A stretch of 64,000 nucleotides of DNA from Salinivirgaceae bacterium (GCA_017645945.1 JAGCNL010000053.1:7816-71815); one strand, 5' to 3'. Positions 1,467 through 56,778 are shown, counted from the stretch's first letter. A program made the numbers and translations. Notes: generated by a model not told the origin, from the letters alone.

Positions 1467-2753
1467 TCAACCTTCTAAACTTTTCAGCCTCACCGTCACG
1501 GCATTCTTGTGTCCGTCGAGCATTTCGGCGGCGGCCATTGTCTCAATCACGGGGCCCAAATGTCGGATTCCGTCGGCTGTAAGTTGCTGAAACGTAATCT
1601 TTTTCATAAAGCTGTCGATATTCACGCCGCTGTAGGCGCGGGCATAGCCGTTGGTGGGCAGCGTATGGTTGGTGCCCGACGCGTAGTCGCCAGCGCTCTC
1701 GCACGAGTAGTAGCCCATAAACACCGAGCCCGCCTGACGCACGCGCAGCGCCCAGTCGTCGGGGTTGCTCACCGACAGAATAAGGTGCTCGGGGGCGTAT
1801 GCGTTCACAAAATCCATTGCCGTGTCAATATCGTTGAAGCAGACAAACCGCGAGTTGGCCAGCGCCTTCTGCGCGAACTCACGGCGTGGCAGTTCGTCGA
1901 GTTGGCGCTGCGTCTCCTGCCAAACGTCCTCAATCTTGTGCTGCGAGAGCGACACCAGAACCACCTGACTGTCAGGGCCGTGCTCGGCTTGCGAGAGCAG
2001 GTCGGCGGCAGCGAACTGCACAGGCGTTTGGTCGTCCACCACCACCAGCACCTCCGACGGGCCAGCAGGCATATCAATAGCCACACCCATTGACGAAACG
2101 AGTTGCTTGGCGCACGTAACATATTGGTTGCCAGGACCGAAAATCTTGTCAACCTGCGGAATGGTCTCCGTGCCGAACGCCATAGCCGCAATGGCCTGCG
2201 AGCCGCCCACCTTGAACACCCGCCGAACGCCCGTCAGCCTTGCGGCGAACAGAATGGCGGGGTTGATTTTGCCCTCCTTGTTGGGCGGCGTGCAGAGCAC
2301 CACCTCGCCGCAGCCAGCAATCTGCGCGGGAATGGCCAGCATAAGAACCGTCGAGAAGAGTGGGGCCGAACCGCCAGGAACATAAAGCCCGATGCGGTTT
2401 ATCGGCGTTGCCTTCTGCCAGCAGCGCACCCCTTCGGCGGTCTCCACTTCAACCTGCTTGGGCATTTGCGCCTGATGGAATTTGGCAATGTTATCTTTCG
2501 CCGTGCGGATGGCATTTTTCAGATTATCAGACAGTTTGGCCTCGGCCTCGTTGAATTCCTGCTCGCTAGTGAGCCAACTTTCAGGCACCACCTTGTCGAA
2601 TTTCAGCGTCAGTTCGCGCAGAGCCTCGTCGCCGCGCTCGCGCACCTGCGTCAGCACGTCGTTCACCATTGGCGCCAGGCTCTGACGGTCAATCAGCGGC
2701 CGCGCCACAATATCTTTCCAGGCAATTCTTTCGGGGTTGATTATAATGTTCAT
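1467..2753 (-). CDS. hisD: histidinol dehydrogenase
   Basis: 428 aa ORF with typical HisD length and sequence (QAEHGPDSQ, GDYASGTNHTLPT). Directly downstream of hisG. Confidence 0.95.
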   Translation of the reverse strand: MNIIINPERIAWKDIVARPLIDRQSLAPMVNDVLTQVRERGDEALRELTLKFDKVVPESWLTSEQEFNEAEAKLSDNLKNAIRTAKDNIAKFHQAQMPKQVEVETAEGVRCWQKATPINRIGLYVPGGSAPLFSTVLMLAIPAQIAGCGEVVLCTPPNKEGKINPAILFAARLTGVRRVFKVGGSQAIAAMAFGTETIPQVDKIFGPGNQYVTCAKQLVSSMGVAIDMPAGPSEVLVVVDDQTPVQFAAADLLSQAEHGPDSQVVLVSLSQHKIEDVWQETQRQLDELPRREFAQKALANSRFVCFNDIDTAMDFVNAYAPEHLILSVSNPDDWALRVRQAGSVFMGYYSCESAGDYASGTNHTLPTNGYARAYSGVNIDSFMKKITFQQLTADGIRHLGPVIETMAAAEMLDGHKNAVTVRLKSLEG

Positions 2754-2763
2754 TGTTTTGAAT

Positions 2764-2910
2764 GTTTAGAGTTTAGGGGGAAGTGTTTAGAGTTTAGATA
2801 GTTGCAGCGCTGCGGTAGAGACGTAGCGCGCTACGTCTGTACAGTTTGCATTCGTTCGTAATTCGCAATTCATAATTCAAAAATCTCAACCCTTACCTCT
2901 TACCCCTTAC
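2764..2910. repeat. heptad-periodic word array in the hisG-hisD spacer (21 heptad slots in one register), with two GC palindromes in the middle
   Basis: Split from 2764: gtttaga gtttagg gggaagt gtttaga gtttaga ... ttcgtaa ttcgcaa ttcataa ttcaaaa atctcaa cccttac ctcttac cccttac. The left and right word blocks share the same 7-nt register (2855-2764=91=13x7). Embedded palindromes: GCAGCGCTGC (2804-2813) and AGACGTAGCGCGCTACGTCT (2819-2838). Confidence 0.8.
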
Positions 2911-2912
2911 CG

Positions 2913-3764
2913 TTAATAAATCATTTTCTCAATCGGCATTACCAGAATGCCTTCAGCGCCAAGGTTTTTCAGTTTGCCGATGATTTCCCAGAAGTGTTTC
3001 TCCTCAATCACCGAAGCCATTGACGACCAGCCGTCGGTCTCCAGTTTGGTGATGGTGGGGGCCTTCATACCAGGCAGCAGTTCGCTTGCGGCGGCAATCT
3101 TGTCGTTCGGGATGTTCAGCACGATGTATTTCTTGCCTTCGGCGTTCTTGTACGAGTCGAAGCGGAACAGCAGTTCGTTCAGAATCTCGCGCTTGTCGGC
3201 TGCAAGTTTCTTGTTTCCAATCAGAACGGCTTCCGATTTCATCACCACTTCAACCTCTTTCAGGTTGTTGCTCACCAGCGTGCTTCCCGAGCTTACAATG
3301 TCGAAAATGCTGTCGGCCAAGCCGATACCAGGTGCTATCTCAACTGAACCTGTAATCACATGGATTTCGGCCTTGATTCCGTTCTTGTCGAGGAAACGCT
3401 TCAGGATTCCCGGATACGAAGTGGCAATCTTCTTGCCGTTGAACCACTCAAGTCCCTTGTAGTCAATCTCTTTAGGGATGGCCAGCGACAGACGGCACTT
3501 GCTGAAGTCCAAGCGCTTGATAATCTCCGCGTCTTCCTGACGCTCTTCATACTCGTTCTCGCCAACAATGCCCACGTCGGCAATGCCGCTAGCCACGGCC
3601 TGCGGAATATCGTCGTCGCGCAGATAAAGAATCTCAACGGGGAAGTTCTTTGCGGGCACCAGCAGGGTGCGCTTTCCCGATTCCACCTTAATGCTCGACT
3701 CCGCAAGCATTGTCATTGTCTCGTCAAACAATCGGCCTTTGGCCTGTACTGCAATTCTTAACAT
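2913..3764 (-). CDS. hisG: ATP phosphoribosyltransferase
   Basis: The track ORF (2913..4169) is over-extended. The recognisable HisG sequence starts at MLRIAVQAKGRLFDETMTML (ATG at 3762-3764), giving 283 aa. The upstream part of the ORF covers the his leader region. Confidence 0.9.
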   Translation of the reverse strand: MLRIAVQAKGRLFDETMTMLAESSIKVESGKRTLLVPAKNFPVEILYLRDDDIPQAVASGIADVGIVGENEYEERQEDAEIIKRLDFSKCRLSLAIPKEIDYKGLEWFNGKKIATSYPGILKRFLDKNGIKAEIHVITGSVEIAPGIGLADSIFDIVSSGSTLVSNNLKEVEVVMKSEAVLIGNKKLAADKREILNELLFRFDSYKNAEGKKYIVLNIPNDKIAAASELLPGMKAPTITKLETDGWSSMASVIEEKHFWEIIGKLKNLGAEGILVMPIEKMIY

Positions 3765-3789
3765 ATTTTTATTCGTTTTAATAATTCCT

Positions 3790-3822
3790 AAACAAGAAAG
3801 GCTCGCATTGCTGCAAGCCTTT
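3790..3822 (-). terminator. his attenuator terminator hairpin
   Basis: Minus strand AAAGGCTTGC-AGCAAT-GCGAGCCTTT is a 10-bp stem including one G-U pair, followed by CTTGTTT. Located between the His-codon leader ORF and the hisG start. Confidence 0.6.
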
Positions 3823-3858
3823 GTATCATTTACATAGAACCAACCAGTCAATGCTCTG

Positions 3859-3903
3859 TTAGATTGAACCAAAGTAATGATGGTGGTGATGATGCTGTAA
3901 CAT
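3859..3903 (-). promoter_or_regulatory. his operon leader peptide ORF (MLQHHHHHHYFGSI) with six consecutive His codons
   Basis: Minus strand reads atg tta cag cat cat cac cac cat cat tac ttt ggt tca atc taa. 15 codons, about 95 nt upstream of the hisG ATG, followed by the hairpin at 3797-3822. Confidence 0.75.
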
Positions 3904-3926
3904 TTTCGTCTTAAATTTTTGTGCCA

Positions 3927-3934
3927 CAAAGGTA
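3927..3934 (-). promoter_or_regulatory. candidate Bacteroides -7 box (TACCTTTG) for the his leader/operon
   Basis: Minus-strand TACCTTTG matches the TAnnTTTG consensus, 24 nt upstream of the leader ATG. Confidence 0.45.
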
Positions 3935-4023
3935 AGTGCAGTTTTTTAATACGCAATAGCATATTGAAAAAAATCAAAAAAGAGCCGAGATGGCGAAAAT
4001 AGGCACACAACCAATCGATTTTA

Positions 4024-7005
4024 TTGCTACTTTTCAAAGTTCGTTCCCGAAACACTTTTGTTATGGATATGATTAACGACCACGAGGCTTTTGATTTGTT
4101 TTTCAAGAACAGCAACGATTTGATGCTTGTCTTGGACTCCGACTGCCATATCCTGAAAATCAACCCCACGTGTGTGAAAATCTTTGGTTATCAGCCCGAA
4201 GAGCTTATCGGGCGGCACATCATGGAGCTTGTGCACACTGATGATAAGGAGCGTGGCGAGCAGCAGATTAAGGAGATTTATAAGACAGAGGGCGTCAATT
4301 TTCCGTTCAAAAACAAGGCTTTGCACAAAGATGGCAGCACGCGCTGGCTCAGCTGGTCGTCGTGCGTCCTGGGCGGCATTTTGTATGCCACGGGTACCGA
4401 TGTGACAAGGCAGGAGGAGAGTCTGCGCAACATTGAGTACATCCGCCGCCGCTATATGAAACGCAGCGACTCGGGCATCGGCCTTTGGGAGGTCAATCTC
4501 GAAACCCGCGAATTCTCTGGCGATGAGCATGTTTATGAGATTTTCGGTTTGCCTTACCAAAGCAGCCAGACATTGCGCACGCTTGAGTTCGTGCTAACGC
4601 CCGAGGGCCGCGAGGTGGTCGTCTCGCACCTTAATAAGGTTATCTGCTCCAACATCTTCGAGAATTTCGACTGCGAGATTATCCGTCAGACCGACAAGCA
4701 GAAACGCACCATCAGTGTGACGGGAAACTTCATTTTCGACAAGGATTTCAGCGTCAAGTCGTTCTTTGGCACCATGCAGGACATCACTGAGCAGACGGAG
4801 ATTAAGCGCCAGTACGATGAGCTTTCAAAGCTTCAGCACACCATTCTCGATGCCATCGACTGCGGCGTGCTGCTGGTCAACAAGGGGCGTATCCAGTGGT
4901 TCAACAAGAAGGAGGCTTTCGGCTACACCGAAGATGATATGCGCGAACAGCGTTACGAGTTTGTTGATGTGTTCAAAGACCCCGCAATGGTTGCCAAACT
5001 GCGAGGCGACGGCTACAATCTGATGCGCATCGGCGTGACATATTCAACTGAGTTTGAGGTATATAAGAAAGACCGCACGCTGGCGTGGGTTCACGTCACG
5101 GGCAAAATGCTGTCCGACGAGAGCGTTGTCTGGACCATCACCGACATCACCGCGCAGAAGCAGGCGTCGCTGTCAATCGCCAAGAGCCACGCCCTGCTCA
5201 AGGACACCCAAAGAGCCGCCCATATTGGCAGCTGGGAGACCATCGGCAATGGCAAGTCAATCAAGCTTGACGATGTGGCCTGCCGCATTTTCGACATCAA
5301 GCGGAGCAACCACACCATGACGGTCAGCAGTCTCATGCGGCTGCTCGACCAGAAAGGGCGCGACAGTCTGCGGGCAAGCGTCAAATCGAACATTATCAAG
5401 GACGATACATTCATCAATTTCAACTGCCACATAACCACGCAGGCAGGTAACACACGGCACATATTTGTTACGGGCGACAACCTTAACTGGGGCACGGAGT
5501 CGGGGCGTATTGTCGGCATTGTTCAGGATGTTACGCGCATGGAGCAGCTTGAGCAGGAGCTGGAGGAGAAGCGAACCCGCATTGATGCCATCTATGCCAC
5601 CTCGCCAACAGCCATCGGTCTGATTCACGGTTACGACATTTTCGACTGCAACAAGGAGTTCTACAGAATTACAGGCTATCAGGCCGATGAGTTGAAGGAC
5701 AAAGGTCTGCTGAGGCTGATGTCGCCGAGCGAAATCGACCGTCTGAACCGCAAGGGCTTGCAGTCGAACGACAATGTGACTGTTCACTCGTTCGAGACCG
5801 TTTTTCTGCGCAAGACAGGCCGCAAAGTCAACGTGCTGCTGAATTTCTCAATCTTCGGACAGACCGACGGCAGCCCTCGAAGCAGCATTATATCCGTCAC
5901 CGACATCACAGCGCTCAAGATTGCCCAACAAACTAACTTTCAGCTTATTGAGTCAATCAACCAGTCGCAGAACGAGTTTATCATCTACGACAGCAACTGG
6001 ATTGCCGTCTATGCCAACGACAAGGTGTTTATGGCGCATAACTATGAATCAAAAGACATTATCGGCCAGCGTATCCGAGAATTTGATTTAGATAACAAGC
6101 AGCAAAACATTCTGTATCAAAAGCTTATGGAAACTGGCAGTGTCAACGGCGAATTCCAGGTGCGTAACGGCAACATGATAATATGGTATTCGGTCCGCAT
6201 ATCGCCAATCTACGACAAGAACAAGGTGATTACGGGTTATGTGTCAGTGAAAGAGGACATTACAACCCGTAAGAACATTGAGATGGAGCTGATGAAGGCA
6301 CTGAGCAAGGCCGAGCAGTCGGACCGCATGAAGGAGACGCTGCTGCAAAACCTGTCGCATGAGATACGCACGCCGCTCAACGCCATTTCGGGCTTTGCCG
6401 AAATCATCAGCGAGAGCTCTGGCCTGCCTGACGACACATTGAAATCATACACAAATATTATAAGCAACAGTTGCAACCAGCTCATGGGCATTGTGTCTGA
6501 CATGCTTGTGATGTCTGATATCCAGCTTGGGCGCACATCGGTTGCCGTCACACGCATCGTTCCTGACGAGATTCTCCGCAGGCTGCACCGAATCTTCCTT
6601 CAGCAGGCTCAGGCCAAAAACATCACGCTGGAATATGTCGAGCCAGCTGACAGCAGCGTGGTCATCTACACCGATGAGACCAAGCTTGTGCAGATTGTTT
6701 CGAATTTGCTCACAAACGCCATAAAATTCACTGATAAGGGAGGAGTGTGGTTCGGCTATTCAGCCAACGACAAGCAAATCGAATTTTACGTCAGAGACAC
6801 GGGAATCGGCATTTCGCAGGAGGACATGCGCCAGATTTTCGACCGCTTCTTCCAAGTCACCTCCAACAAGGCCAGCAGCTACGGCACTGGACTCGGACTT
6901 GCCATCTCGCAGTCGTTTGCCAAGATGCTTCACGGCGAGCTTAATGTGGAGTCGGAGCTTGGAAAGGGCACTGTTTTCCATCTGATAATCCCTATAAAAG
7001 TCTAA
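4024..7005 (+). CDS. multi-PAS sensor histidine kinase
   Basis: 993 aa ORF with several PAS-like repeats. H-box LSHEIRTPLNAISGF and ATPase motifs (DTGIGI, GTGLGLAI). The true start may be the internal Met at 4063 (MDMINDHEAF). Confidence 0.85.
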   Translation: MLLFKVRSRNTFVMDMINDHEAFDLFFKNSNDLMLVLDSDCHILKINPTCVKIFGYQPEELIGRHIMELVHTDDKERGEQQIKEIYKTEGVNFPFKNKALHKDGSTRWLSWSSCVLGGILYATGTDVTRQEESLRNIEYIRRRYMKRSDSGIGLWEVNLETREFSGDEHVYEIFGLPYQSSQTLRTLEFVLTPEGREVVVSHLNKVICSNIFENFDCEIIRQTDKQKRTISVTGNFIFDKDFSVKSFFGTMQDITEQTEIKRQYDELSKLQHTILDAIDCGVLLVNKGRIQWFNKKEAFGYTEDDMREQRYEFVDVFKDPAMVAKLRGDGYNLMRIGVTYSTEFEVYKKDRTLAWVHVTGKMLSDESVVWTITDITAQKQASLSIAKSHALLKDTQRAAHIGSWETIGNGKSIKLDDVACRIFDIKRSNHTMTVSSLMRLLDQKGRDSLRASVKSNIIKDDTFINFNCHITTQAGNTRHIFVTGDNLNWGTESGRIVGIVQDVTRMEQLEQELEEKRTRIDAIYATSPTAIGLIHGYDIFDCNKEFYRITGYQADELKDKGLLRLMSPSEIDRLNRKGLQSNDNVTVHSFETVFLRKTGRKVNVLLNFSIFGQTDGSPRSSIISVTDITALKIAQQTNFQLIESINQSQNEFIIYDSNWIAVYANDKVFMAHNYESKDIIGQRIREFDLDNKQQNILYQKLMETGSVNGEFQVRNGNMIIWYSVRISPIYDKNKVITGYVSVKEDITTRKNIEMELMKALSKAEQSDRMKETLLQNLSHEIRTPLNAISGFAEIISESSGLPDDTLKSYTNIISNSCNQLMGIVSDMLVMSDIQLGRTSVAVTRIVPDEILRRLHRIFLQQAQAKNITLEYVEPADSSVVIYTDETKLVQIVSNLLTNAIKFTDKGGVWFGYSANDKQIEFYVRDTGIGISQEDMRQIFDRFFQVTSNKASSYGTGLGLAISQSFAKMLHGELNVESELGKGTVFHLIIPIKV

Positions 7006-7082
7006 TTTTAAGCGATATAATTGTCGGAACAGATATTTTTAGAATCAATTCGATTTTCTGTTTGCAATAATTAAAAAATATT

Positions 7083-7090
7083 TACTTTTG
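7083..7090 (+). promoter_or_regulatory. candidate -7 box (TACTTTTG) for the tRNA-Leu pair
   Basis: Matches TAnnTTTG, 14 nt upstream of the tRNA 5' end. Confidence 0.45.
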
Positions 7091-7103
7091 CACCCGCTTG
7101 AAA

Positions 7104-7187
7104 GCCTAAGTGGCGGAATTGGTAGACGCGCTAGTTTCAGGGACTAGTGTTAGCAATAACGTGCAGGTTCGAGTCCTGTCTTAGGCA
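7104..7187 (+). tRNA. tRNA-Leu (anticodon CAG)
   Basis: Acceptor GCCTAAG/CTTAGGC. D-arm GTGGCGGAATTGGTAGACGC as in bacterial tRNA-Leu. Anticodon stem CTAGT/ACTAG with loop TTCAGGG. Long variable arm. T-arm GGTTCGAGTCC. Confidence 0.9.
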
Positions 7188-7210
7188 CTACAAAAAGTTC
7201 TTTATTTAAT

Positions 7211-7297
7211 GCCCAGATGGTGAAATTGGTAGACACGCTACTTTGAGGGGGTAGTGGCCGTTAGGCTGTGCAAGTTCGAGTCTTGTTCTGGGCACCA
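7211..7297 (+). tRNA. tRNA-Leu (anticodon GAG), CCA encoded
   Basis: Acceptor GCCCAGA/TCTGGGC. Anticodon stem CTACT/GGTAG (one G-U pair) with loop TTGAGGG. Long variable arm. T-arm AGTTCGAGTCT. Ends ACCA. Confidence 0.9.
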
Positions 7298-7300
7298 GAA

Positions 7301-7328
7301 GCTTCTGCAATGCAGAGGCTTTTTTTTT
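7301..7328 (+). terminator. intrinsic terminator after the tRNA-Leu pair
   Basis: GCTTCTG-CAATG-CAGAGGC hairpin followed by T9. Confidence 0.75.
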
Positions 7329-7380
7329 GCCCGATTTTGAGCGTTTACGGCGCTGTCGCGATGGTTGCGGGGGAACAACG

Positions 7381-7486
7381 AAAAAACGGCTCCGATGGGG
7401 AGTCGGGAGCCGTTTCTGATTGTTGCGGACGGGGAGTCCGCGTAAGCAACTAAAAACTATTATGAAGAAACATGTCTTTATCAGAC
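7381..7486 (-). ncRNA. candidate small RNA, copy 1 (two CUCCCC loops; paralog at 54268-54378)
   Basis: On the minus strand it is preceded by TACATTTG. It contains hairpin GCGGAC-UCCCC-GUCCGC (7425-7441) and terminator AACGGCUCC(C)GA-CUCCCCA-UCGGAGCCGUU plus U6 (7381-7414). About 80% identical by eye to the second copy. The boundaries are inferred. Confidence 0.6.
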
Positions 7487-7490
7487 GATG

Positions 7491-7498
7491 CAAATGTA
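7491..7498 (-). promoter_or_regulatory. -7 box TACATTTG of sRNA copy 1
   Basis: Minus-strand TACATTTG matches TAnnTTTG and is conserved in copy 2. Confidence 0.55.
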
Positions 7499-7520
7499 GG
7501 TGAGCAAATCGTTCGTGCTG

Positions 7521-7557
7521 GTTAAGAACAGGTTAAAAAGAGTTAATGAAAAGTTAA
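7521..7557 (-). promoter_or_regulatory. four phased TTAAC boxes upstream of sRNA copy 1 (candidate response-regulator site)
   Basis: GTTAA on the plus strand at 7521, 7532, 7542 and 7553 (spacing 11, 10, 11). Same arrangement and spacing in copy 2. Confidence 0.5.
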
Positions 7558-7679
7558 ACAGTCAGGAGTGTGCTGCGGAATGGTGGTTTTCTCCGCCAGT
7601 TCCGAAAGGTCGGCATACACATATTTTTAAGCAAAAAACGTAAAAAGCCGCAACGGTAGGAAAACTGCCCCATAATTGC

Positions 7680-7687
7680 TATCTTTG
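7680..7687 (+). promoter_or_regulatory. candidate -7 box (TATCTTTG) for the acnA-icd-citrate synthase operon
   Basis: Matches TAnnTTTG. Implies a 5' UTR of about 130 nt before the ATG at 7825. Confidence 0.4.
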
Positions 7688-7824
7688 CGATTTAAAAGCG
7701 GTGTCCGCACATTTATGCGGAAATGATGCATAAATATTTGGGCACCAGATTTTGAAAGGTTGTTTAAAACGTTGATTTTCAATAATCGGGGAGAGGCGTC
7801 TTCCCAAAAAACACATATAGAATA

Positions 7825-10089
7825 ATGCTTTTTGATTATGAGATGATTGCGCAATTCTACAACGAATTGCCCGCAAAAGTGGCCGAAGCCCGCAAGCTGT
7901 TAGGCCGACCATTGACTTTGAGTGAGAAAATCCTATACGCGCATCTGTCGCCTGAGGCCGAAGTCCGCAAATATACGCGGGGTGCCGACTACGCGCTGTT
8001 TGCGCCCAACCGCGTGGCTATGCAGGACGCTACCGCGCAAATGGCTCTTCTTCAGTTCATCAATGCTGGCAAAAGCCGCACAATGGTGCCTTCAACTGTG
8101 CACTGCGACCACTTGATTCAGGCCAACGTGGGAGCCGAGAAAGACCTTGCCGTGGCTAACGAACAGAACAAGGAGGTTTACAGCTTCCTGCACGACGTGG
8201 CCGCCAAATACGGCATCGGATTCTGGAAACCTGGAGCTGGCATCATCCATCAGGTGTTGCTTGAGAACTACGCTTTCCCTGGCGGAATGATGATTGGCAC
8301 CGACTCGCACACCGTCAACGCAGGCGGTTTGGGTATGGTGGCCATTGGTGTTGGCGGCGCCGACGCTGTCGACGTTATGGTTGGTCTGCCGTGGGAGCTG
8401 AAAATGCCGAAGCTTATCGGTATCAAACTCACTGGCAAACTCAACGGTTGGGCATCGCCGAAGGACATTATTCTGAAGGTGGCTGGACTGCTCACCGTCA
8501 AAGGCGGAACTGGCTGCATTGTTGAGTATTTCGGCGAGGGCGCGGCAACATTGTCGGCCACTGGCAAAGGCACCATTTGTAATATGGGCGCCGAAATCGG
8601 GGCAACCACTTCAATCTTCGCCTTCGACAAGAAAATGCACGAATACCTTTGCGCCACTGGCCGCGAGAAGATTGCCGCACTGGCCGAGAAGAACGCCGCC
8701 AATCTGGCAAGCGACCCCGAGGTTTACGCCAATCCCGAGAATTTCTACGACCAAATCATCGATATAAATCTTTCAGAAATAGAGCCTTACGTGAACGGAC
8801 CGTTCTCGCCCGACCTTGCAACGCCAATTTCGCAGTTTGCCGATTACATCCGCAAAAACAACTATCCCGAGAAAATGGAAGTTGGTTTGATTGGCTCGTG
8901 CACCAACTCGTCGTACGAGGATTTGGACCGCGCCGCATCGGTGGCTCGTCAGGCTAAAGAGAAGAATATCAAGGTAAAAGCGGAGTTTATTGTAAGTCCT
9001 GGTTCAACACAGGTGAAGAAAACCACCGACCGCGACGGTCAGATTGCCGCCTTCAAGGAGATTGGCGCGCTTGTTATGGCCAACGCCTGCGGCCCGTGCA
9101 TTGGTCAGTGGGCACGCCACACCGCCGACCCAACGGCCAAGAACAGTATCATCCACTCGTTCAACCGCAACTTTGCCAAACGTACCGACGGCAACCCCAA
9201 CACCCACGGGTTTGTGGCTTCGCCCGAGCTGGTTACGGCAATGGCAATTTCGGGTTCAATGCTGTTCAACCCGTTGAAAGACAAACTTATGACCGAAGAC
9301 GGCCGCGAGGTTATGCTTGACGCGCCTGTAGGTGACGAACTGCCTGCAAACGGCTTCGTTACCGACCCCGACGGCTTTATTGCACCGCCTGCCGACGGTT
9401 CGGGCATCGTTATTAAGGTGGACCCGAACAGCGAGCGTCTGCAACTGCTTGAGCCGTTTGCCGAGTGGGACGGCAAGGATTTTGATAACTTGCAACTGCT
9501 CATCAAGGCCAAAGGCAAATGCACAACCGACCATATCAGTATGGCTGGCAAGTGGCTGCGCTTTCGCGGACATCTCGACAACATCAGCAACAACCTTCTG
9601 ATTGGCGCCATCAACGCGTTCAACGGCGAGGCTAACAAGGTGCTCGACACCGCAAGCGGCAACTACACCGCCGTTCCCGACCTTGCTCGCTCGTACAAGG
9701 CACGCGGTCTGCGCAGCATCATCATCGGTGACGAGAACTACGGTGAGGGTTCGAGCCGTGAGCACGCTGCTATGGAGCCGCGTCATTTGGGTGTGAACGT
9801 GGTGCTGGCAAAATCGTTCGCTCGCATCCACGAGACCAACCTTAAGAAACAGGGTATGCTGGCGCTCACTTTCGCCGACAAGGCCGATTATGACCGCATC
9901 CGCGAGAACGACACCTTCGCCATCAGCGGCCTGACAACCTTCAGCGCGGGCGTGCCATTGAAAATGACCATCCGCCACGCCGACGGAACATCGGAGCAAA
10001 TAACTGTAAATCATACTTATAACGCTGCACAGATTGAGTGGTTCAAGTTGGGCGGCGCATTGAATCAAATTCGTAAACAATCAAAATAA
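7825..10089 (+). CDS. acnA: aconitate hydratase (mitochondrial-type aconitase)
   Basis: 754 aa ORF with aconitase Fe-S cluster motifs ([24 protein letters not shown]). Followed by icd and citrate synthase, as in the Bacteroides fragilis operon. Confidence 0.93.
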
Positions 10090-33140: not shown

Positions 33141-33833
33141 CTATCCGAACTCGCTCAAACTTTCGAGCAGCTGCTTGCTCAAAATCTTGACATTCTTTCC
33201 TTCGATGTTGATAATCTTATCGTTATGAAACTCTTTCAGAATTCTGATGGCGCTCTCGGTTGACATTCCGCAGAAATCGGCCATATCGCGGCGGGTAATC
33301 TGCATGTTGAACTCGTCGGAGCCGTAGATGTTGCGTGAGAAATGCAGCAGTGCGTCGGCCATACGTCCGTTCAGCTGCTTTTGCGTGAGGCTGATAATCC
33401 TGTCGATGGTGTTGGAGTATTCCTTATTTAGCTGGATTATAGACTTTTCCGCAAAATCAGGATATTCTCTAATCTGGTTTTTAATGATATTGACGTTGAC
33501 AGAGAAAACCGTCGTCGGCATTACGGTTGCTACGGAAAAGAGGTTTGTCTCGTTGTTGTAAATCGATGACAACCCGAACACCTCGCCCTTGCGGACGAAA
33601 CTCATTATAAGATTCTCGCCTTTGTACTCTCTGTAAACCTTCAGCATGCCGCTGACCACAAAACTGACGTTAGTCGCAAAAGAGCCCTGCTTGCAGACAA
33701 TCTCATTCTTGTTGTAATCGAGACAAACGCTGTTTTTCAATACTATAGCCCAATGTTCGTCAGTCAGCTGATCAAACCAAATGGGGAAATCTTCTTTTTT
33801 TATCTGCATATCTTTCCATGTTTTTAGTTGCAA
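33141..33833 (-). CDS. Crp/Fnr family transcriptional regulator
   Basis: 230 aa ORF with a cNMP-binding-like beta-roll (GEVFGLSS) and a C-terminal HTH (RRDMADFCGMSTESAIRILKEF). Confidence 0.8.
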   Translation of the reverse strand: MQLKTWKDMQIKKEDFPIWFDQLTDEHWAIVLKNSVCLDYNKNEIVCKQGSFATNVSFVVSGMLKVYREYKGENLIMSFVRKGEVFGLSSIYNNETNLFSVATVMPTTVFSVNVNIIKNQIREYPDFAEKSIIQLNKEYSNTIDRIISLTQKQLNGRMADALLHFSRNIYGSDEFNMQITRRDMADFCGMSTESAIRILKEFHNDKIINIEGKNVKILSKQLLESLSEFG

Positions 33834-34010
33834 AATAATCGGAGGCTTTCTCCTCCATAAATTTTATGTGAATATATGAAGTGCGATTGTGATTCACAAA
33901 TTTTTCTGACGTAAATCATAAAAATAACCTTTTTCGGCAAACGGCGGCTGGTGTTTGACTTTCACATCAAGACTGACTATATTCGCCGCGCAGTTAATAA
34001 TTACTACACA

Positions 34011-51837: not shown

Positions 51838-52536
51838 CTACCCTTTCACCCCAAGAATATACCCCGTTCCGTGCACGTTGGTAATCTCAATGTTCGGGTC
51901 GGATTTCAGGTATTTGCGCAGTTTGGTGATGAAAACGTCCATACTGCGGGCGGTGAAATAGCCAGTCTCGCCCCAGATTTTCTCAAGCGTCAGATTGCGG
52001 TCCACCACGTTGTTGACGTTCTGATTCAGGAAGTAAAGCAGGTCGGCCTCTTTGGGCGAGAGTTTGGTTTGCGAACCATCTTCAAACGTCAGGGTGCGGT
52101 TCTTCACGTTGAACACATAGCGGCCAATCGTCAGTTCTTCGACGGAATTATCGAGCTGCGGGCTTGCAGGCGTGCGCTTCAGAATGGCTTTTATCTTATA
52201 GATAAGCAGTTCAGAATCAAATGGTTTGGTGATATAATCGTCGGCACCAATCTTGTAGCCTTTAATCATATCTTCCTTCATATTCTTGGCTGTCAGATAG
52301 ATAATCGGTATGGCAGGTTTCAACTGCTTGATTTCGGCACCAATGGTGAAGCCGTCGACGTGGGGCAGCATCACATCCAAAATGCAAAGGTCGAACTGCC
52401 CTGCCTTGAAGGTGGACACTGCGTTCAGGCCATCATCGACAAGCGTAACGTCCAATTCGTTCATTTCCAGGAACGAACGCAGCACCGAGCCGAAATTCAC
52501 ATCGTCCTCAACCAAAAGAATCTGTTGCTTTGACAT
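51838..52536 (-). CDS. OmpR/PhoB-family response regulator (RprY-like)
   Basis: 232 aa ORF. Receiver domain (ILLVEDD, LDVMLP, KPF) plus a winged-helix C-terminus. Downstream of its kinase. Confidence 0.9.
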   Translation of the reverse strand: MSKQQILLVEDDVNFGSVLRSFLEMNELDVTLVDDGLNAVSTFKAGQFDLCILDVMLPHVDGFTIGAEIKQLKPAIPIIYLTAKNMKEDMIKGYKIGADDYITKPFDSELLIYKIKAILKRTPASPQLDNSVEELTIGRYVFNVKNRTLTFEDGSQTKLSPKEADLLYFLNQNVNNVVDRNLTLEKIWGETGYFTARSMDVFITKLRKYLKSDPNIEITNVHGTGYILGVKG

Positions 52537-52548
52537 ATCTATAAGTAT

Positions 52549-54123
52549 TTATGATTCAACGTTTTCATCGATTGTCGGCAGCCAGATTTCGAAGGTGCTC
52601 CCCTCGCCTTTCTGACTCGACACTTTGATTTCGCCCTTGCACGAGAGCACAATGGCCTTCACGTAACTCAATCCGAGCCCGAACCCTTTGACAGTGTGCA
52701 CGTTACCCGTCGGGTGGCGGTAGAACTTCTCGAACACCTTCTCCTGCGTCTCCTTGTCCATACCTATTCCCTTGTCGCTCACCGAGATAAGCAGGTCGGT
52801 GCCAATGTTGCGGGTGGTGACGGTTATGTCGGGCGGCGTATCGATTGAGTATTTATTGGCATTATCCAACAGGTTGTAAATCACATTGATAAAGTGCGAT
52901 TGGTCGACGCGGGCAAAATCGTTTTTGGCATTGTTGACAAGTTTGATTGTGCCGCCACGGTGCTCAACCTGAAGGCTGATATTGCTCACCGCCTTCTCAA
53001 TAAACGGCTGAACGTGAGTGGGTTGCAAGTTCAGATTAAAATCTTTCTTGTCGAGCATCGACATTTGCAGCACCGTCTCCACCTGACGGTTCATTCGGCG
53101 GTTCTCCTCCTTGATAATGCTTGTGAAACGCTGAATTTTCTCGGGGTCACCAATCACCGACGGCGACGTGATTGAATCGGCAGCCAACTGAATTGTGGCC
53201 AGCGGCGTCTTAAACTCGTGCGTCATATTGTTCACAAAATCGGTCTTCACCTCCGACGTGCGTTTTTGATCAACCATTGTGCGGATTGTCACCCAAAATG
53301 TTATCAATATGATAGTTGTGAACAAAACCGAGCCCCATATTGGCAGCATCACCGAACTGTAAATCACGTTGCGGCGGTCGGGAAAATAGACCGAGAGTTT
53401 CTCGTCGTGCTGCGCGAAATCGTTGGGAAACAGGCTTGTTTTGAATGTCCGCTTCTGACTTTTGTAGCCCTTCGATTTCAGATTCTCATACGGCACACCC
53501 TTGCTGTCGGTGACGGCGAACTCAAACGGAAGGTCGATGCCCGCGTTGCGGAACTCAAAGGCCAGCGTGGGCTTGATGGTTGTGAAATCGACGCGCTCGC
53601 TGATTGGGCGGTCCTTGATGTTGAACTCGAAAAGCATCTGCTCCATCAGTTGCTCCATCCCCGCGCGCCCCCATCCGCCTCGGCCCTCGGGCTGAGTAAC
53701 CGACGAGTAGGCTTGGAACGACACATTTCCGCCATCGACAACGGTATCAATCTGATAACTAATGGTTTCCGTATTGCCATTCCTCTCCTTTTTCATCTTC
53801 GAAAGGTCGATGACGTGCTCCTTGCTGCGGTTGCCGAAATCGCTCAGCGTCATAATGAGCGATTCCTCCTGACGGTTGCGAGCCTTGCCTGCCATTCCCG
53901 ACATAAAGTTCGATATGAAAAATGCATTCTGATTGCGCTCGATGCGGAAAGCCGCATTCTGCAAGGCAAAGTTGACGTGCTGCGCAAACTGCTCGTCGCG
54001 CACCGAGATGGCCTTGCGAACCCAGAAAATCTGCACGGCGATGATGCCAAAAAGCGACACTATCATCAGTGCCAGAATGCCCGAAAAACGTTGTCGTTTC
54101 ACTGCTTTAGAATTTTGATTCAA
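52549..54123 (-). CDS. sensor histidine kinase (RprX-like)
   Basis: 524 aa ORF with two TM segments. H-box MTHEFKTPLATI and ATPase motifs (DKGIGM, GFGLGLS). Confidence 0.9.
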   Translation of the reverse strand: MNQNSKAVKRQRFSGILALMIVSLFGIIAVQIFWVRKAISVRDEQFAQHVNFALQNAAFRIERNQNAFFISNFMSGMAGKARNRQEESLIMTLSDFGNRSKEHVIDLSKMKKERNGNTETISYQIDTVVDGGNVSFQAYSSVTQPEGRGGWGRAGMEQLMEQMLFEFNIKDRPISERVDFTTIKPTLAFEFRNAGIDLPFEFAVTDSKGVPYENLKSKGYKSQKRTFKTSLFPNDFAQHDEKLSVYFPDRRNVIYSSVMLPIWGSVLFTTIILITFWVTIRTMVDQKRTSEVKTDFVNNMTHEFKTPLATIQLAADSITSPSVIGDPEKIQRFTSIIKEENRRMNRQVETVLQMSMLDKKDFNLNLQPTHVQPFIEKAVSNISLQVEHRGGTIKLVNNAKNDFARVDQSHFINVIYNLLDNANKYSIDTPPDITVTTRNIGTDLLISVSDKGIGMDKETQEKVFEKFYRHPTGNVHTVKGFGLGLSYVKAIVLSCKGEIKVSSQKGEGSTFEIWLPTIDENVES

Positions 54124-54167: not shown

Positions 54168-54194
54168 TCGTTCCTGCTCCACTTTCCGCGTGGT

Positions 54195-54231
54195 TTAACG
54201 TTTCGTTAACTCTTTTTAACAGCGCCTTAAC
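54195..54231 (+). promoter_or_regulatory. four phased TTAAC boxes between divergent promoters (candidate response-regulator site)
   Basis: TTAAC at 54195, 54206, 54216 and 54227 (spacing 11, 10, 11). Same as at 7521-7557. Confidence 0.5.
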
Positions 54232-54253
54232 CAGCGCGAGCCGTTTGCCAACA

Positions 54254-54261
54254 TACATTTG
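54254..54261 (+). promoter_or_regulatory. -7 box TACATTTG of sRNA copy 2
   Basis: Identical octamer to copy 1. The flanking TTTGC-N5-TACATTTGCA is conserved. Confidence 0.55.
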
Positions 54262-54267
54262 CAACGT

Positions 54268-54378
54268 CTGATTAGGACAATATTTTCTTCATAATAGGTT
54301 TTTAGTTGCTATGCGGACTCCCCGTCCGCCAAAATCAGAAACGGCTTCCGACTCCCCATCGGTGGCCGTTTCACTTTT
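54268..54378 (+). ncRNA. candidate small RNA, copy 2 (paralog of 7381-7486)
   Basis: Contains GCGGAC-UCCCC-GUCCGC (54312-54328) and a terminator-like hairpin AACGGCUUCCGA-CUCCCCA-UCGGUGGCCGUU (54340-54370), followed by UCACUUUU. The boundaries are inferred. Confidence 0.55.
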
Positions 54379-54382
54379 ATCC

Positions 54383-54420
54383 AAAAAAAGAAGACACAAA
54401 CCAATGCAGCTTGTGTCTTC
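54383..54420 (-). terminator. intrinsic terminator after the 54443-55210 gene
   Basis: Minus strand GAAGACACAA-gctgcattggt-TTGTGTCTTC (10-bp perfect stem) followed by T7. Confidence 0.8.
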
Positions 54421-54442
54421 TGTAGTGGAGAACAATCTCACT

Positions 54443-55210
54443 TTATTTTTTCTGGTTATTACCCATTATCATATTGTATTGCACGGTGATGTAACCGTCG
54501 CTCGGGAAAATCTTGTTAGCCAGCGTGATAACGGCTTCGGCATCTTTCTTGCGCTTGTCTGCCACCAAATCCTGAGTATATTTCATAATGCCGTCAACAA
54601 TCATGCTTTTTACAATTGGGTCGGGCTTGATTGTGCCGCCATTGACAATCTGCTCGGTGAGTTTGGTGCGGGCCTCGCTCATTTCGTGCTCACCTTGCGT
54701 GACATTGTTCGACATGCATTTGAGAATGCCTGAATAGTACATGAACAGATAGTCGGTTTTCTGGTTCAGTTTCTCGTAGTTCTTGGCCGCTGCTGCCGCC
54801 TTTGTGTAGTTTCCTTTGTCGAAATTCGTCTTAATCTCAGCTTTAACGTGTTTCTTCAGCTCGTTGATGAAATCGAGATTCTGCGCGTAGAGCTCGCCTT
54901 CAACATCCTTGCGGATGAATTTCTGCGTGTATTTGATGGCTTGACGCATGCCGTCTTTGTAATCAGCGGCAACTTCAGCGTCGGGTGACTCATAAAGTTT
55001 CACCATGCACATGGCTGCATAAAGGTGCGGCTCAGCCTCGCGGCTTGCAGCGGGGTCTTCACACATATCTTCGGCTTTGAACAGGCAAATCTCATATTTG
55101 CCCGAATTGTAAAGCTTTGCAAGCTTCTGATTATGCCCGCCTTTCACTTGCGCAAACGAGCTTGCGCAAACAAGCAGGCTTATTGCCGTATAAACAAGAC
55201 GTAAATTCAT
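54443..55210 (-). CDS. secreted helical-repeat protein, unknown function
   Basis: Probable start MNLRLVYTAISLLVCASSFAQ (ATG 55208-55210); the track ORF extends to 55291. Composition is alpha-helical and TPR-like. Confidence 0.5.
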   Translation of the reverse strand: MNLRLVYTAISLLVCASSFAQVKGGHNQKLAKLYNSGKYEICLFKAEDMCEDPAASREAEPHLYAAMCMVKLYESPDAEVAADYKDGMRQAIKYTQKFIRKDVEGELYAQNLDFINELKKHVKAEIKTNFDKGNYTKAAAAAKNYEKLNQKTDYLFMYYSGILKCMSNNVTQGEHEMSEARTKLTEQIVNGGTIKPDPIVKSMIVDGIMKYTQDLVADKRKKDAEAVITLANKIFPSDGYITVQYNMIMGNNQKK

Positions 55211-55431: not shown

Positions 55432-56778
55432 ATGCAGAAACCAATACAAGACTTCTCGATAGGCTACACAATGCTGAAGCACTATTCGAGGTTCTACGTC
55501 CGCAAATTCTTCAAGACGACAACCATTGTCGGGCTCGACAATATTCCGAAAAATACGCCGGTGATTATCACCCCCAACCACCAGGACACGCTGATGGACG
55601 CCCTGTGCATTATCTACAATGTGCACGGCCGTGCGGTTTTTATGGCTCGTGCCGATATTTTCGGTAAATCGAAGCTGATTGCCAACACTTTGCGCTTCCT
55701 GAAGATTCTTCCGCTATACCGCATTCGCGACGGCGTGAAGGAGCTTAAAAACAACGATGCGTCGTTTGAGGAGGCTGTGGGCGTTTTGGAAGCCCGTCAG
55801 AAATTGGTTGTTCTGCCTGAAGGCAGTCACGTTGGCGAGCGCCGTCTGCGCCAGTTGAAGAAAGGCGTGGCACGCATTGCCTTTATGGCCGAGGAACGCA
55901 ACAATTTCGAGTTAGGGATTCAGATTGTGCCCGCCGGACTCGACTACACGCACTATATCAACGTTGGCGCGCGGTTTATGGTTCAGTACGGCAAGCCGAT
56001 ACCTGTGGCCAAATACAAGGATTTGTACCAAGAGAATCCGCAGAAGGCAATGGCCGCGCTGATGGACGACATTCGCGCCGGAATGCTGCCGCTGATGCTC
56101 AATCTCGACAACGAAGCCGAATACAAAACGCTTGAAACACTCGACGATATCTATATCAACGACCTGTACAAAGGTCACCAGAGCCGTCGTCGCGTGAAGC
56201 ACACCGAGATACTTGCAAAGAAACAGCAGATGGGCGAGAAACTACTTGCTTTCGCGCAGTCGCAATCGGCTGAATATGAGAATACTAAACAGTTGGCCAC
56301 CGAGTTCCGTACGCTGTTGGAGAAACTCAATCTGCGCCTGTGGGCGGTTGCCAAAGACAGCTATTCGGTGCTTGGAATCTTCTTCAACCGATTGCTGCAG
56401 TTGCTCTTTCTGCCTGTTTTTCTGCTCGGCTTTATCCCGAACATTCTGCCATTCTATCTGCCTGTGCGTTTCACTCGCGGCATTAAAGACCCGCAGTTCC
56501 TGAGTTCGGTGCGGTTTGTGATTGCAGTGGTGGTCTTCACTCTGTTCTATCTTATCTACCTGATACCGTTAATGATATTCCTTCCGAAATGGTGGATGGC
56601 GATTCTGTTGGAGGTGGCGTTGCTGTATCTTGCCGAATTGGCAGTCCGCTACACCACTTGGTTCCGTAAGACAACGGCCCGTGCACGCGTCAACCGCTAC
56701 CGTCGCCGCAAAAACGCCGATTGGCTGCGCCTGACCGAGTGCCGCGATGGAATTTTGAACGTTCTGAAGAAGTTGTAA
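55432..56778 (+). CDS. lysophospholipid/glycerol-phosphate acyltransferase family protein with a C-terminal membrane domain
   Basis: 448 aa ORF. Acyltransferase block ITPNHQDTLMDAL and VVLPEGSH. C-terminal TM helices. Confidence 0.7.
   Translation: MQKPIQDFSIGYTMLKHYSRFYVRKFFKTTTIVGLDNIPKNTPVIITPNHQDTLMDALCIIYNVHGRAVFMARADIFGKSKLIANTLRFLKILPLYRIRDGVKELKNNDASFEEAVGVLEARQKLVVLPEGSHVGERRLRQLKKGVARIAFMAEERNNFELGIQIVPAGLDYTHYINVGARFMVQYGKPIPVAKYKDLYQENPQKAMAALMDDIRAGMLPLMLNLDNEAEYKTLETLDDIYINDLYKGHQSRRRVKHTEILAKKQQMGEKLLAFAQSQSAEYENTKQLATEFRTLLEKLNLRLWAVAKDSYSVLGIFFNRLLQLLFLPVFLLGFIPNILPFYLPVRFTRGIKDPQFLSSVRFVIAVVVFTLFYLIYLIPLMIFLPKWWMAILLEVALLYLAELAVRYTTWFRKTTARARVNRYRRRKNADWLRLTECRDGILNVLKKL

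Follow-up and report, generated by a model that had tools for sequence, protein, structure and literature searches.

A 64,000-nucleotide stretch of DNA from a Salinivirgaceae bacterium (GCA_017645945.1 JAGCNL010000053.1:7816-71815), referred to here at its full length as the window, carries two similar sequences in inverted orientation, and raises the question of what they encode, how they would be controlled and on what they could act. The original prediction had read them as a pair of paralogous small RNA (sRNA) genes whose twin CUCCCC loops would pair with G-rich translation initiation regions, in the manner of RsaE/RoxS. The observation of paired sRNA genes was confirmed, with nearly all described features in place, and the interpretation overall is partly supported. 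The reading favoured here, which is considered rather probable as a whole, is a paralogous pair of sRNAs that would be the direct output of a two-component system and would act in trans through an invariant sequence block, with C-rich loops that are lineage-specific and gene copies that are the sites of an inversion.

Global alignment of the two loci (7381-7560 on the minus strand and 54192-54378 on the plus strand) gave 155 matches in 188 columns (82.4%), in agreement with the ~80% identity that had been estimated by eye. Both loci are intergenic. Copy 1 is neighboured by two convergent tRNA-Leu genes and by the divergent genes for aconitase, isocitrate dehydrogenase and citrate synthase, and copy 2 by a divergent histidine kinase and response regulator and by a convergent gene for a protein of 282 amino acids (aa). 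The following parts were assigned.

7381-7486, minus strand: sRNA copy 1, predicted transcript of ~105 nt (covariance-model match at 7377-7490, 100.7 bits; fold z = -5.5)
7491-7498, minus strand: -7 box TACATTTG of copy 1, of the Bacteroidota TAnnTTTG type, 22 nt past the last TTAAC
7521-7557, minus strand: putative operator of copy 1, in which TTAAC is directly repeated four times at intervals of 6, 5 and 6 nt (11-10-11 bp phasing)
7444-7470, minus strand: invariant block of copy 1, UUUCUUCAUAAUAGUUUUUAGUUGCUU, predicted to be single-stranded and proposed as the seed; its complement reads as leader + AUG AAG AAA
7425-7441, minus strand: hairpin 1 of copy 1, GCGGAC-UCCCC-GUCCGC
7381-7416, minus strand: predicted intrinsic terminator of copy 1, a 13-pair stem with one bulged C and the loop CUCCCCA (7402-7396), followed by UUUUUU
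54195-54231, plus strand: putative operator of copy 2, an array of four TTAAC direct repeats flanked on one side by the sRNA promoter and on the other by the divergent kinase gene
54254-54261, plus strand: -7 box TACATTTG of copy 2, 22 nt past the last TTAAC
54266-54378, plus strand: sRNA copy 2, predicted transcript of ~113 nt (covariance-model match at 54262-54378, 125 bits)
54283-54311, plus strand: invariant block of copy 2, UUUUCUUCAUAAUAGGUUUUUAGUUGCUA, predicted to be single-stranded
54313-54329, plus strand: hairpin 1 of copy 2, GCGGAC-UCCCC-GUCCGC
54338-54378, plus strand: predicted terminator hairpin of copy 2, loop CUCCCCA (54352-54358), with one U-G pair and one U/U mismatch
54389-54421, no strand assigned: strong hairpin of 15 base pairs in the space that separates copy 2 from the convergent 282-aa gene, called as the terminator of that gene

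The perfect -7 box of each copy, the internal hairpin, the CUCCCCA terminator loop and the two irregular positions in the copy 2 terminator stem had all been part of the original prediction and were recovered; in the copy 1 stem a one-base bulge takes the place of the U-G pair and the mismatch. The start of copy 1 was placed a few nucleotides past the -7 box and its end at the U-tract (7386-7381). The U-tract of copy 2 is interrupted (UUUCACUUUU); partial read-through from copy 2 into the next terminator is possible, and the hairpin at 54389-54421 is a possible back-stop. No open reading frame (ORF) is common to both copies, as had been claimed, the 7-codon ATG ORF of copy 1 being missing from copy 2. 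Throughout the window GACTCCCC occurs only as the four sRNA loops (0.87 occurrences expected; 0/100 shuffles reached four), and the same GACUCCCC motif is present in both loops of both copies. Compared with shuffled sequences, the folds of copies 1 and 2 had z-scores of -5.3 and -4.7 in one run and of -5.5 and -3.6 in another. Of the proposed pairing between UCUGAU and AUCAGA, only the presence and complementarity of the two segments stood: the long-range closing helix was rejected, being absent from the minimum free energy (MFE) and centroid folds and missing beyond the closest relatives (window, L001 and L002). A small local 5' hairpin (GUCU/AGAC, UUCC/GGAA, GUUC/GAAC) is possible by eye only.

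In Rfam 15, three tRNAs were the only matches in the window at gathering score, and cmscan of both loci at E ≤ 10 returned no RsaE and no match other than unrelated families (E 0.57-7.3, far under their gathering scores); in the original prediction the pair had not been recognised as a named Bacteroides sRNA. A loop-anchored, stem-agnostic pattern scan, covering one genome per species, returned 14 contigs, the window's own genome not among them. By inspection the sRNA is present on two of these, L001 and L002, which belong to metagenome-assembled genomes of rumen 'Salinivirgaceae'; a third, L007, was a chance match to the loop pattern. The other eleven contigs are from unrelated phyla, and the sRNA call covers L001, L002 and L007 only. 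With loci fetched by synteny via homologues of the neighbouring kinase and by a metagenome scan, the total came to 12 distinct homologues, across which that kinase is 60-99% identical. All 12 keep the -7 box, the 3' hairpin and the U-tract, and most keep two hairpins.

A covariance model, R1, was built from eight homologues. As the original prediction had suggested, it was used to scan for the family: in the window exactly the two copies were recovered (125 and 101 bits), the next match having 15 bits and E = 0.9, and no further copies were found. In the model alignment 94.8% of the cells are paired and 10 of 18 pairs have changed on both sides, which 0/500 shuffles reached; when the partner was slid by 1-3 columns as a control, only 35-56% of the cells paired. 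Most of the covariation signal comes from the terminator helix, in which 7 of 13 pairs have changed on both sides, so that the covariation test, likewise suggested beforehand, showed compensatory changes in the terminator stem. The hairpin 1 stem GCGGA/UCCGC is invariant among members with C-rich loops and is uninformative on covariation; in L154 it is replaced by GGAUUC/GAAUCC. The features of an independent sRNA were thus all found, namely an own promoter with a TAnnTTTG box, a hairpin with a U-tract, compensatory changes and no common ORF. The conservation of promoter, hairpin and U-tract, the compensatory terminator changes and the lack of a co-oriented downstream gene at either window copy support the original claim of paralogous, independently transcribed non-coding genes. 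The two loci are best explained as paralogous genes for a predicted non-coding transcript of ~105-115 nt with an intrinsic terminator, and the element is best described as a new sRNA family of an uncultured rumen Bacteroidales clade, with two inverted paralogues in the window.

Which part of this RNA is its conserved core was apparent from a comparison of the loops.

Window copies, L001 and L002: CUCCCCG and CUCCCCA
L015: CUCCCAA and CUCCCAA
L144-L147 and L038: CUCCCAA and CCCCCAA
L053: CUCCCCG and CCCCCAA
L143: UCCCU (single hairpin)
L154: UGA and UUGUAGG
L016: AACUGC (single hairpin)

C-rich loop motifs are found in both window copies and in 9/12 homologues, are reduced in L143 and are absent from L154 and L016. 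The sole blocks invariant in all homologues (the 11 in alignment A5 and L154) are UCAUAA and AGUUGCU, joined by a U-run, and L154, L143 and L016 keep them despite their lost or reduced C-rich loops. Judged from this alignment, the twin C-rich loops are a lineage-specific feature and not the conserved core; they could serve as an additional seed or be contacted by a protein. The block, which was not part of the original prediction, has the form UCAUAAU..GGUUUUU..AGUUGCUA. For copy 1 the MFE fold leaves it unpaired, as does the centroid fold for copy 2, and in several other homologues it is involved in weak, non-conserved A-U pairs only.

In every homologue the complement of the block reads UAGCAACU-(A-rich)-ACC-N-AUU-AUG-A(A/G)(A/G)-AAA, plausibly a short Bacteroidota leader followed by Met-Lys/Arg-Lys/Arg. 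A small ORF on the opposite strand was considered and rejected. Such ORFs mostly have 6-22 codons (more in L016), share nothing beyond M-K/R-K/R and have no promoter box or U-tract; because they are neither conserved nor equipped with these elements, the block is read as a candidate antisense seed and not as a gene. Bacteroidota mRNAs are without Shine-Dalgarno (SD) sequences and their initiation regions are A-rich (PMC7366714). The sRNA GibS represses its Bacteroides targets through a single-stranded seed that pairs with such SD-less, A-rich initiation regions (PMC7366714).

The promoters of both copies share a further element. An array of four TTAAC repeats is found in the window at the two sRNA promoters only, with 0 occurrences expected by chance. 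This operator and the link to a two-component system had not been part of the original prediction. The genes in question lie divergently to copy 2.

52549-54102, minus strand: sensor histidine kinase with HisKA and HATPase_c domains, oriented divergently to copy 2
54128-54121 and 54167-54160, minus strand: candidate -7 boxes TAAATTTG of the kinase gene, read from the sequence
51838-52536, minus strand: OmpR/PhoB-family response regulator (Pfam Response_reg + Trans_reg_C), best match RprY, the putative TTAAC binder

The regulator has the winged-helix output domain of the OmpR/PhoB family and scored 263.9 bits against the NCBIfam model for RprY, the next family reaching 158.9 bits. Among the relatives of the sRNA loci, the TTAAC repeats are invariant and the spacers are variable. 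When metagenomes were scanned with the bare array, at least 120 contigs were obtained. At least 85 array instances have TAnnTTTG 21-25 nt past the last repeat (all loci compared, including the matches listed), and for at least about 50 of those arrays, homologues of the window kinase and/or regulator are placed divergently. Among the matches listed, the full-length kinases are 31-53% and the regulators 46-64% identical to those of the window, and the gene mostly starts 40-90 nt from the array. Ten array-side regulators were tested, all of which matched RprY best with 239-298 bits, likewise under the 370-bit cut-off of that model. The consensus of 82 unique arrays, again among the matches listed, is T-TTAAC-tTTTCn-TTAAC-nnttT-TTAAC-CnnnCn-TTAAC, followed by 21-23 nt to the box. 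Regulators of the OmpR/PhoB family bind direct repeats ~11 bp apart, and the array resembles a tandem pair of PhoB-box-like sites standing in for the upstream promoter element. Because of the co-occurrence of array and two-component system, and of this known behaviour of the family, the RprY-like regulator encoded beside copy 2 most likely binds the TTAAC arrays.

Two side observations concern the array. What looks like an undescribed operator and regulon core is present in L022-L141 (for example L035 5080-5117, L042 and L060), is widespread in Bacteroidota, and consists of an RprY-like pair, the array, the box and a divergent gene for a small secreted protein. Copies that would be unlinked to the two-component system, like window copy 1, recur, since L038 (3566-3768) and L053 (6199-6400) have the sRNA with its array and no adjacent kinase.

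The comparison also indicated what the promoter drives elsewhere. In nearly all metagenome loci among the matches listed, an ORF with a signal peptide starts 20-60 nt past the array promoter. Many of these secreted ORFs contain a KIKVIxDDGSGxKxVIDT-like motif, and no Pfam family match was obtained for the array-driven secreted proteins. Among the loci compared, the sRNA was found at the array promoter only in the rumen clade (window, L001, L002, L015, L016, L038/L053, L143, L144-L147 and L154-L156). Other outputs were observed as well: in L142, where a kinase fragment aligns with 71% of the window kinase at 66% identity, a protein gene takes the place of the sRNA; L066 (about 9084-9200, plus strand) and L069 (minus strand) share GGCUUUCAUUGACAACCCCUG and a terminator at the array promoter, again with an anti-AUGAAA stretch; L020/L021 have a different short terminated transcript there (L020 3600-3790, minus strand); and L137 has a truncated effector ORF. 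Since protein, sRNA and other short terminated RNAs are found at equivalent promoters, the output of this two-component system appears to be evolutionarily labile.

A more specific scenario, in which the output was swapped from a secreted protein to an sRNA born by inversion of the 5' end of the effector gene, is regarded as speculative and rather unlikely. The antisense leader and start would then silence matching mRNAs, the switch would be recurrent (L066/L069, L020/L021) and the sRNA genes would be the sites of the 46.6-kb inversion described below.

A conserved secreted protein of 252-282 aa, without Pfam match, is always encoded beside the sRNA and two-component locus (window 54443-55210, minus strand; L015 2902-3660; L144 1676-2434). 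The orientation of its gene flips among close relatives: in the window, L015 and L154 the gene converges on the sRNA, and in L144-L147 it lies downstream of the sRNA in the same orientation.

To find candidate targets, duplexes of the invariant block with 48 initiation regions of the window were evaluated against 300 dinucleotide shuffles of the seed. The best duplex energy was matched by 2.7% of the shuffled seeds and the second best by 0.3%. The top matches were a Crp/Fnr-family regulator (33141-33809), an RNase E/G gene and an acyltransferase. The leader of the Crp/Fnr gene (33810-33835, minus strand) contains a perfect 12-nt match, GCAACUAAAAAC, directly 5' of an AUG and is a candidate target. 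The acyltransferase (55432-56778) was rejected as a target of the block, its match, strong in the window and L002, having disappeared in L149-L152.

For the C-rich loops, the aconitase gene next to copy 1 was considered, whose promoter box TATCTTTG lies at 7680-7687. In its leader, 40 nt before the ATG and within a local hairpin, CGGGGAG (7787-7793) complements loop 1 perfectly over 7 nt. In the window GGGGAG occurs at four sites outside the sRNA antisense, and of the intergenic leaders only that of aconitase has a G-rich complement close to a start codon. Neither GGGGAG nor UUGGGAG is found in the leaders of the related aconitase genes, whose proteins are 90% (L153) and 82% (L149-L152) identical, and L153 has no sRNA upstream of aconitase. 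An L015-type sRNA locus, recognised via the adjacent kinase P0005, and an L149/L150-type aconitase (P0128) are both present in assembly GCA_024500545.1. With its leader motif missing in these relatives, aconitase is unsupported as a target of the loops. The leader hairpin itself, GGGGAG-aggcgu-CUUCCC at 7787-7805 on the plus strand, ~20-40 nt before the ATG, has a 5' arm that complements the sRNA loops and is not conserved.

The favoured reading can be put as the following mechanism. Transcription of each gene would begin at a promoter of the Bacteroidota type that has the -7 box TACATTTG and whose upstream part would be occupied by the four TTAAC repeats. Binding of the RprY-like regulator to these repeats would make the sRNA a direct output of the two-component system beside copy 2. 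By comparison, the equivalent operator and promoter in divergent position serve a small secreted protein in most Bacteroidota and the sRNA in the rumen 'Salinivirgaceae' clade. The RNA would act in trans by base pairing, with the unstructured U-rich block as its seed, and would cover the region where translation of one or more mRNAs starts, in the manner of GibS, because the complement of the block reads as a complete short 5' leader followed by AUG and two Lys/Arg codons. The inverted copies have, in addition, acted as recombination sites for the 46.6-kb inversion.

Several points weigh against this proposal. What is said of the transcript, of its ends and of its dependence on the regulator is prediction. 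An alignment fitted to a model favours the structure of that model, and the covariation in hairpin 1 comes mostly from the two most divergent members, which are possibly misaligned. The 263.9 bits of the window regulator fall under the 370-bit equivalog cut-off for RprY, and no binding motif or operator for RprY was found in the literature searched. The sRNA lies away from any kinase in L038 and L053; a second, unlinked copy like copy 1 would fit this, though it is unproven. The shuffle test of the seed covers 48 genes only, the match in the initiation region of the acyltransferase is not kept in the 82% relatives, and the target tests amount to leads, a conserved target not being established.

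Other explanations were weighed against the same data. RoxS and RsaE are controlled by OmpR-family regulators and their targets include genes of the tricarboxylic acid (TCA) cycle, and an RNA of that type, with the exposed CUCCCC loops as seeds for G-rich stretches in, for example, TCA-cycle genes, would account for the single GACUCCCC motif in all four loops, the UCCC core in hairpin loops of 10/12 homologues and the CGGGGAG in the aconitase leader by copy 1, GGGGAG being rare in the window. However, the loops vary (CUCCCAA, CCCCCAA, UCCCU) or vanish (L154, L016) with the rest of the RNA kept, the aconitase complement is missing at 90% and 82% identity and the L153 aconitase has no upstream sRNA, an L015-type sRNA and a complement-free L149/L150-type aconitase are recorded in one assembly, and no RsaE match was obtained in Rfam. 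Initiation regions in Bacteroidota are, moreover, A-rich and SD-less (PMC7366714). For these reasons the seed role that the original prediction had given to the C-rich loops is not supported in that form; it is considered unlikely, and the RoxS-like loop-seed model is weaker than the invariant-block model. Somewhat less probable again is that the loops form a decoy that titrates a KH-domain or RRM protein, as CsrB/RsmZ titrate CsrA. C-rich tetrads are a common preference of KH domains, and where bacteria lack Hfq and ProQ, KhpA/B are major binders of sRNAs. Two hairpin loops show identical motifs, and the nearly invariant stem and loop of hairpin 1 among nine homologues would suit a protein recognition site. 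Yet there are two sites only, both lost in L154 while the RNA stays, and the most conserved element is outside the loops. CsrB/RsmZ-type RNAs have many GGA loop motifs and a CsrA partner, whereas here two C-rich loops are found, the comparison covering the loops only.

It is very improbable that the loci make no functional RNA and are the remnant of a decaying effector gene or a regulatory region at the DNA level, with hairpins that belong to the neighbours as terminators. The opposite strand does read as leader and ATG-Lys-Lys, followed by unconserved, signal-peptide-like ORFs of 6-22 codons, and L137 shows a truncated effector ORF at the equivalent promoter in another lineage. Against this, block, hairpins and U-tract persist where the kinase is only 60-80% identical and the flanks have diverged, the terminator stem has compensatory substitutions, the opposite strand has no U-tract and its ORF no preceding TAnnTTTG box, and two copies are maintained. 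Least credible of all is a cis-acting leader or attenuator of a same-strand downstream gene. Such an arrangement is suggested by the 252-aa secreted-protein gene ~280 nt downstream on the same strand in L144-L147, by a tsaB-like gene (so judged by eye on its initial residues) ~40 nt past the terminator in L038/L053 and by the long terminated leader that precedes a 428-aa gene in L020/L021. In the window, however, copy 1 faces convergent tRNA-Leu genes and copy 2 a convergent gene, so that neither is followed by a co-oriented gene; the neighbouring 252/282-aa gene changes its orientation among close relatives with the sRNA unchanged, and in L144 the 252-aa gene has its own TAnnTTTG box.

The position of the two copies is connected with a rearrangement of the region. 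L001 is collinear with window positions 1483-7561 (88% identity) and continues with positions 54371-52579 in reverse (92.7%), the switch from one to the other falling within the sRNA gene. Relative to L001, the 46.6 kb that separate the inverted copies are accordingly flipped, and the two copies are the breakpoints of this inversion. The sRNA of L001 (6206-6385) is, by eye, a mosaic of copy-1-like and copy-2-like segments, a pattern consistent with recombination or gene conversion involving both copies. In relatives, the acyltransferase gene that stands beside copy 2 in the window directly follows the aconitase operon; therefore the region has evidently been rearranged.

Compared with known systems, the element shares with RoxS/RsaE of Firmicutes the short length, the repeated C-rich loop motifs, the intrinsic terminator, the apparent control by an OmpR-family two-component system (ResD/SrrA in those sRNAs) and, for one window copy, a place beside TCA-cycle genes. 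It differs in that it belongs to another phylum, has no sequence or structure match to them, has C-rich loops that are not conserved within its family, occurs in a host without the SD sequences that those sRNAs target and has an unconserved complementarity to aconitase. GibS and other trans-acting sRNAs of Bacteroides thetaiotaomicron are likewise intergenic, are from the same phylum and resemble it in the proposed single-stranded pairing with SD-less, A-rich initiation regions (PMC7366714). Unlike GibS, to which no homology was detected, the RNA would have an internal seed and not one at the 5' end, and would be controlled by a classical two-component system via a four-repeat operator. We know of no report of such control through a four-repeat operator for a Bacteroidota sRNA, and none under classical two-component control was found in the literature searched.

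In OmrA/OmrB (EnvZ-OmpR) and MgrR (PhoQP), too, direct repeats of the regulator replace the upstream promoter element, and OmrA/B are duplicated paralogous sRNAs; cpxP/CpxQ next to cpxRA is also a strongly regulated gene divergent from a two-component operon. These proteobacterial sRNAs, OmrA/B, MgrR and CpxQ, are unrelated in sequence and phylum. Here the divergent output itself switches between secreted protein and sRNA by lineage. RprXY of Bacteroides fragilis and Porphyromonas gingivalis is the closest to the window system in its regulator, which matches RprY best and has an adjacent kinase; RprX adjoins RprY in most Bacteroidetes (PMC6032018). The window regulator differs in scoring under the equivalog cut-off, and for RprY no TTAAC operator or sRNA target was found, nor was a report linking RprXY to an sRNA, in the literature searched. 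Overall, the element is best described as one of a well-known kind (OmrA/B, MgrR, RoxS and others), of which no example from this phylum was found in that literature.

Very few Bacteroidota sRNAs have a known regulator or mechanism. The circuit proposed here, leading from a sensor kinase via an RprY-like regulator and a TTAAC operator to an sRNA, is concrete and testable, and would provide a candidate DNA motif for a regulator family widespread in the phylum, no description of the operator having been found in the literature searched. It also offers a natural comparison, in which the product of an equivalent regulated promoter is a protein or an RNA depending on the lineage, and points to a sensor that would act through RNA where related bacteria use a secreted protein. 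The obvious reading of the locus is corrected in that the eye-catching C-rich loops are, on the alignment, not the conserved core. As the bacteria concerned are uncultured and from the rumen, the practical impact will be modest until the circuit is tried in a tractable relative.

A second kinase gene lies near copy 1. At 4024-7005 on the plus strand, just upstream of the tRNA-Leu pair and copy 1, the window encodes a large histidine kinase that is cytoplasmic, has multiple PAS domains and lacks an adjacent regulator, and this arrangement is kept in L001.

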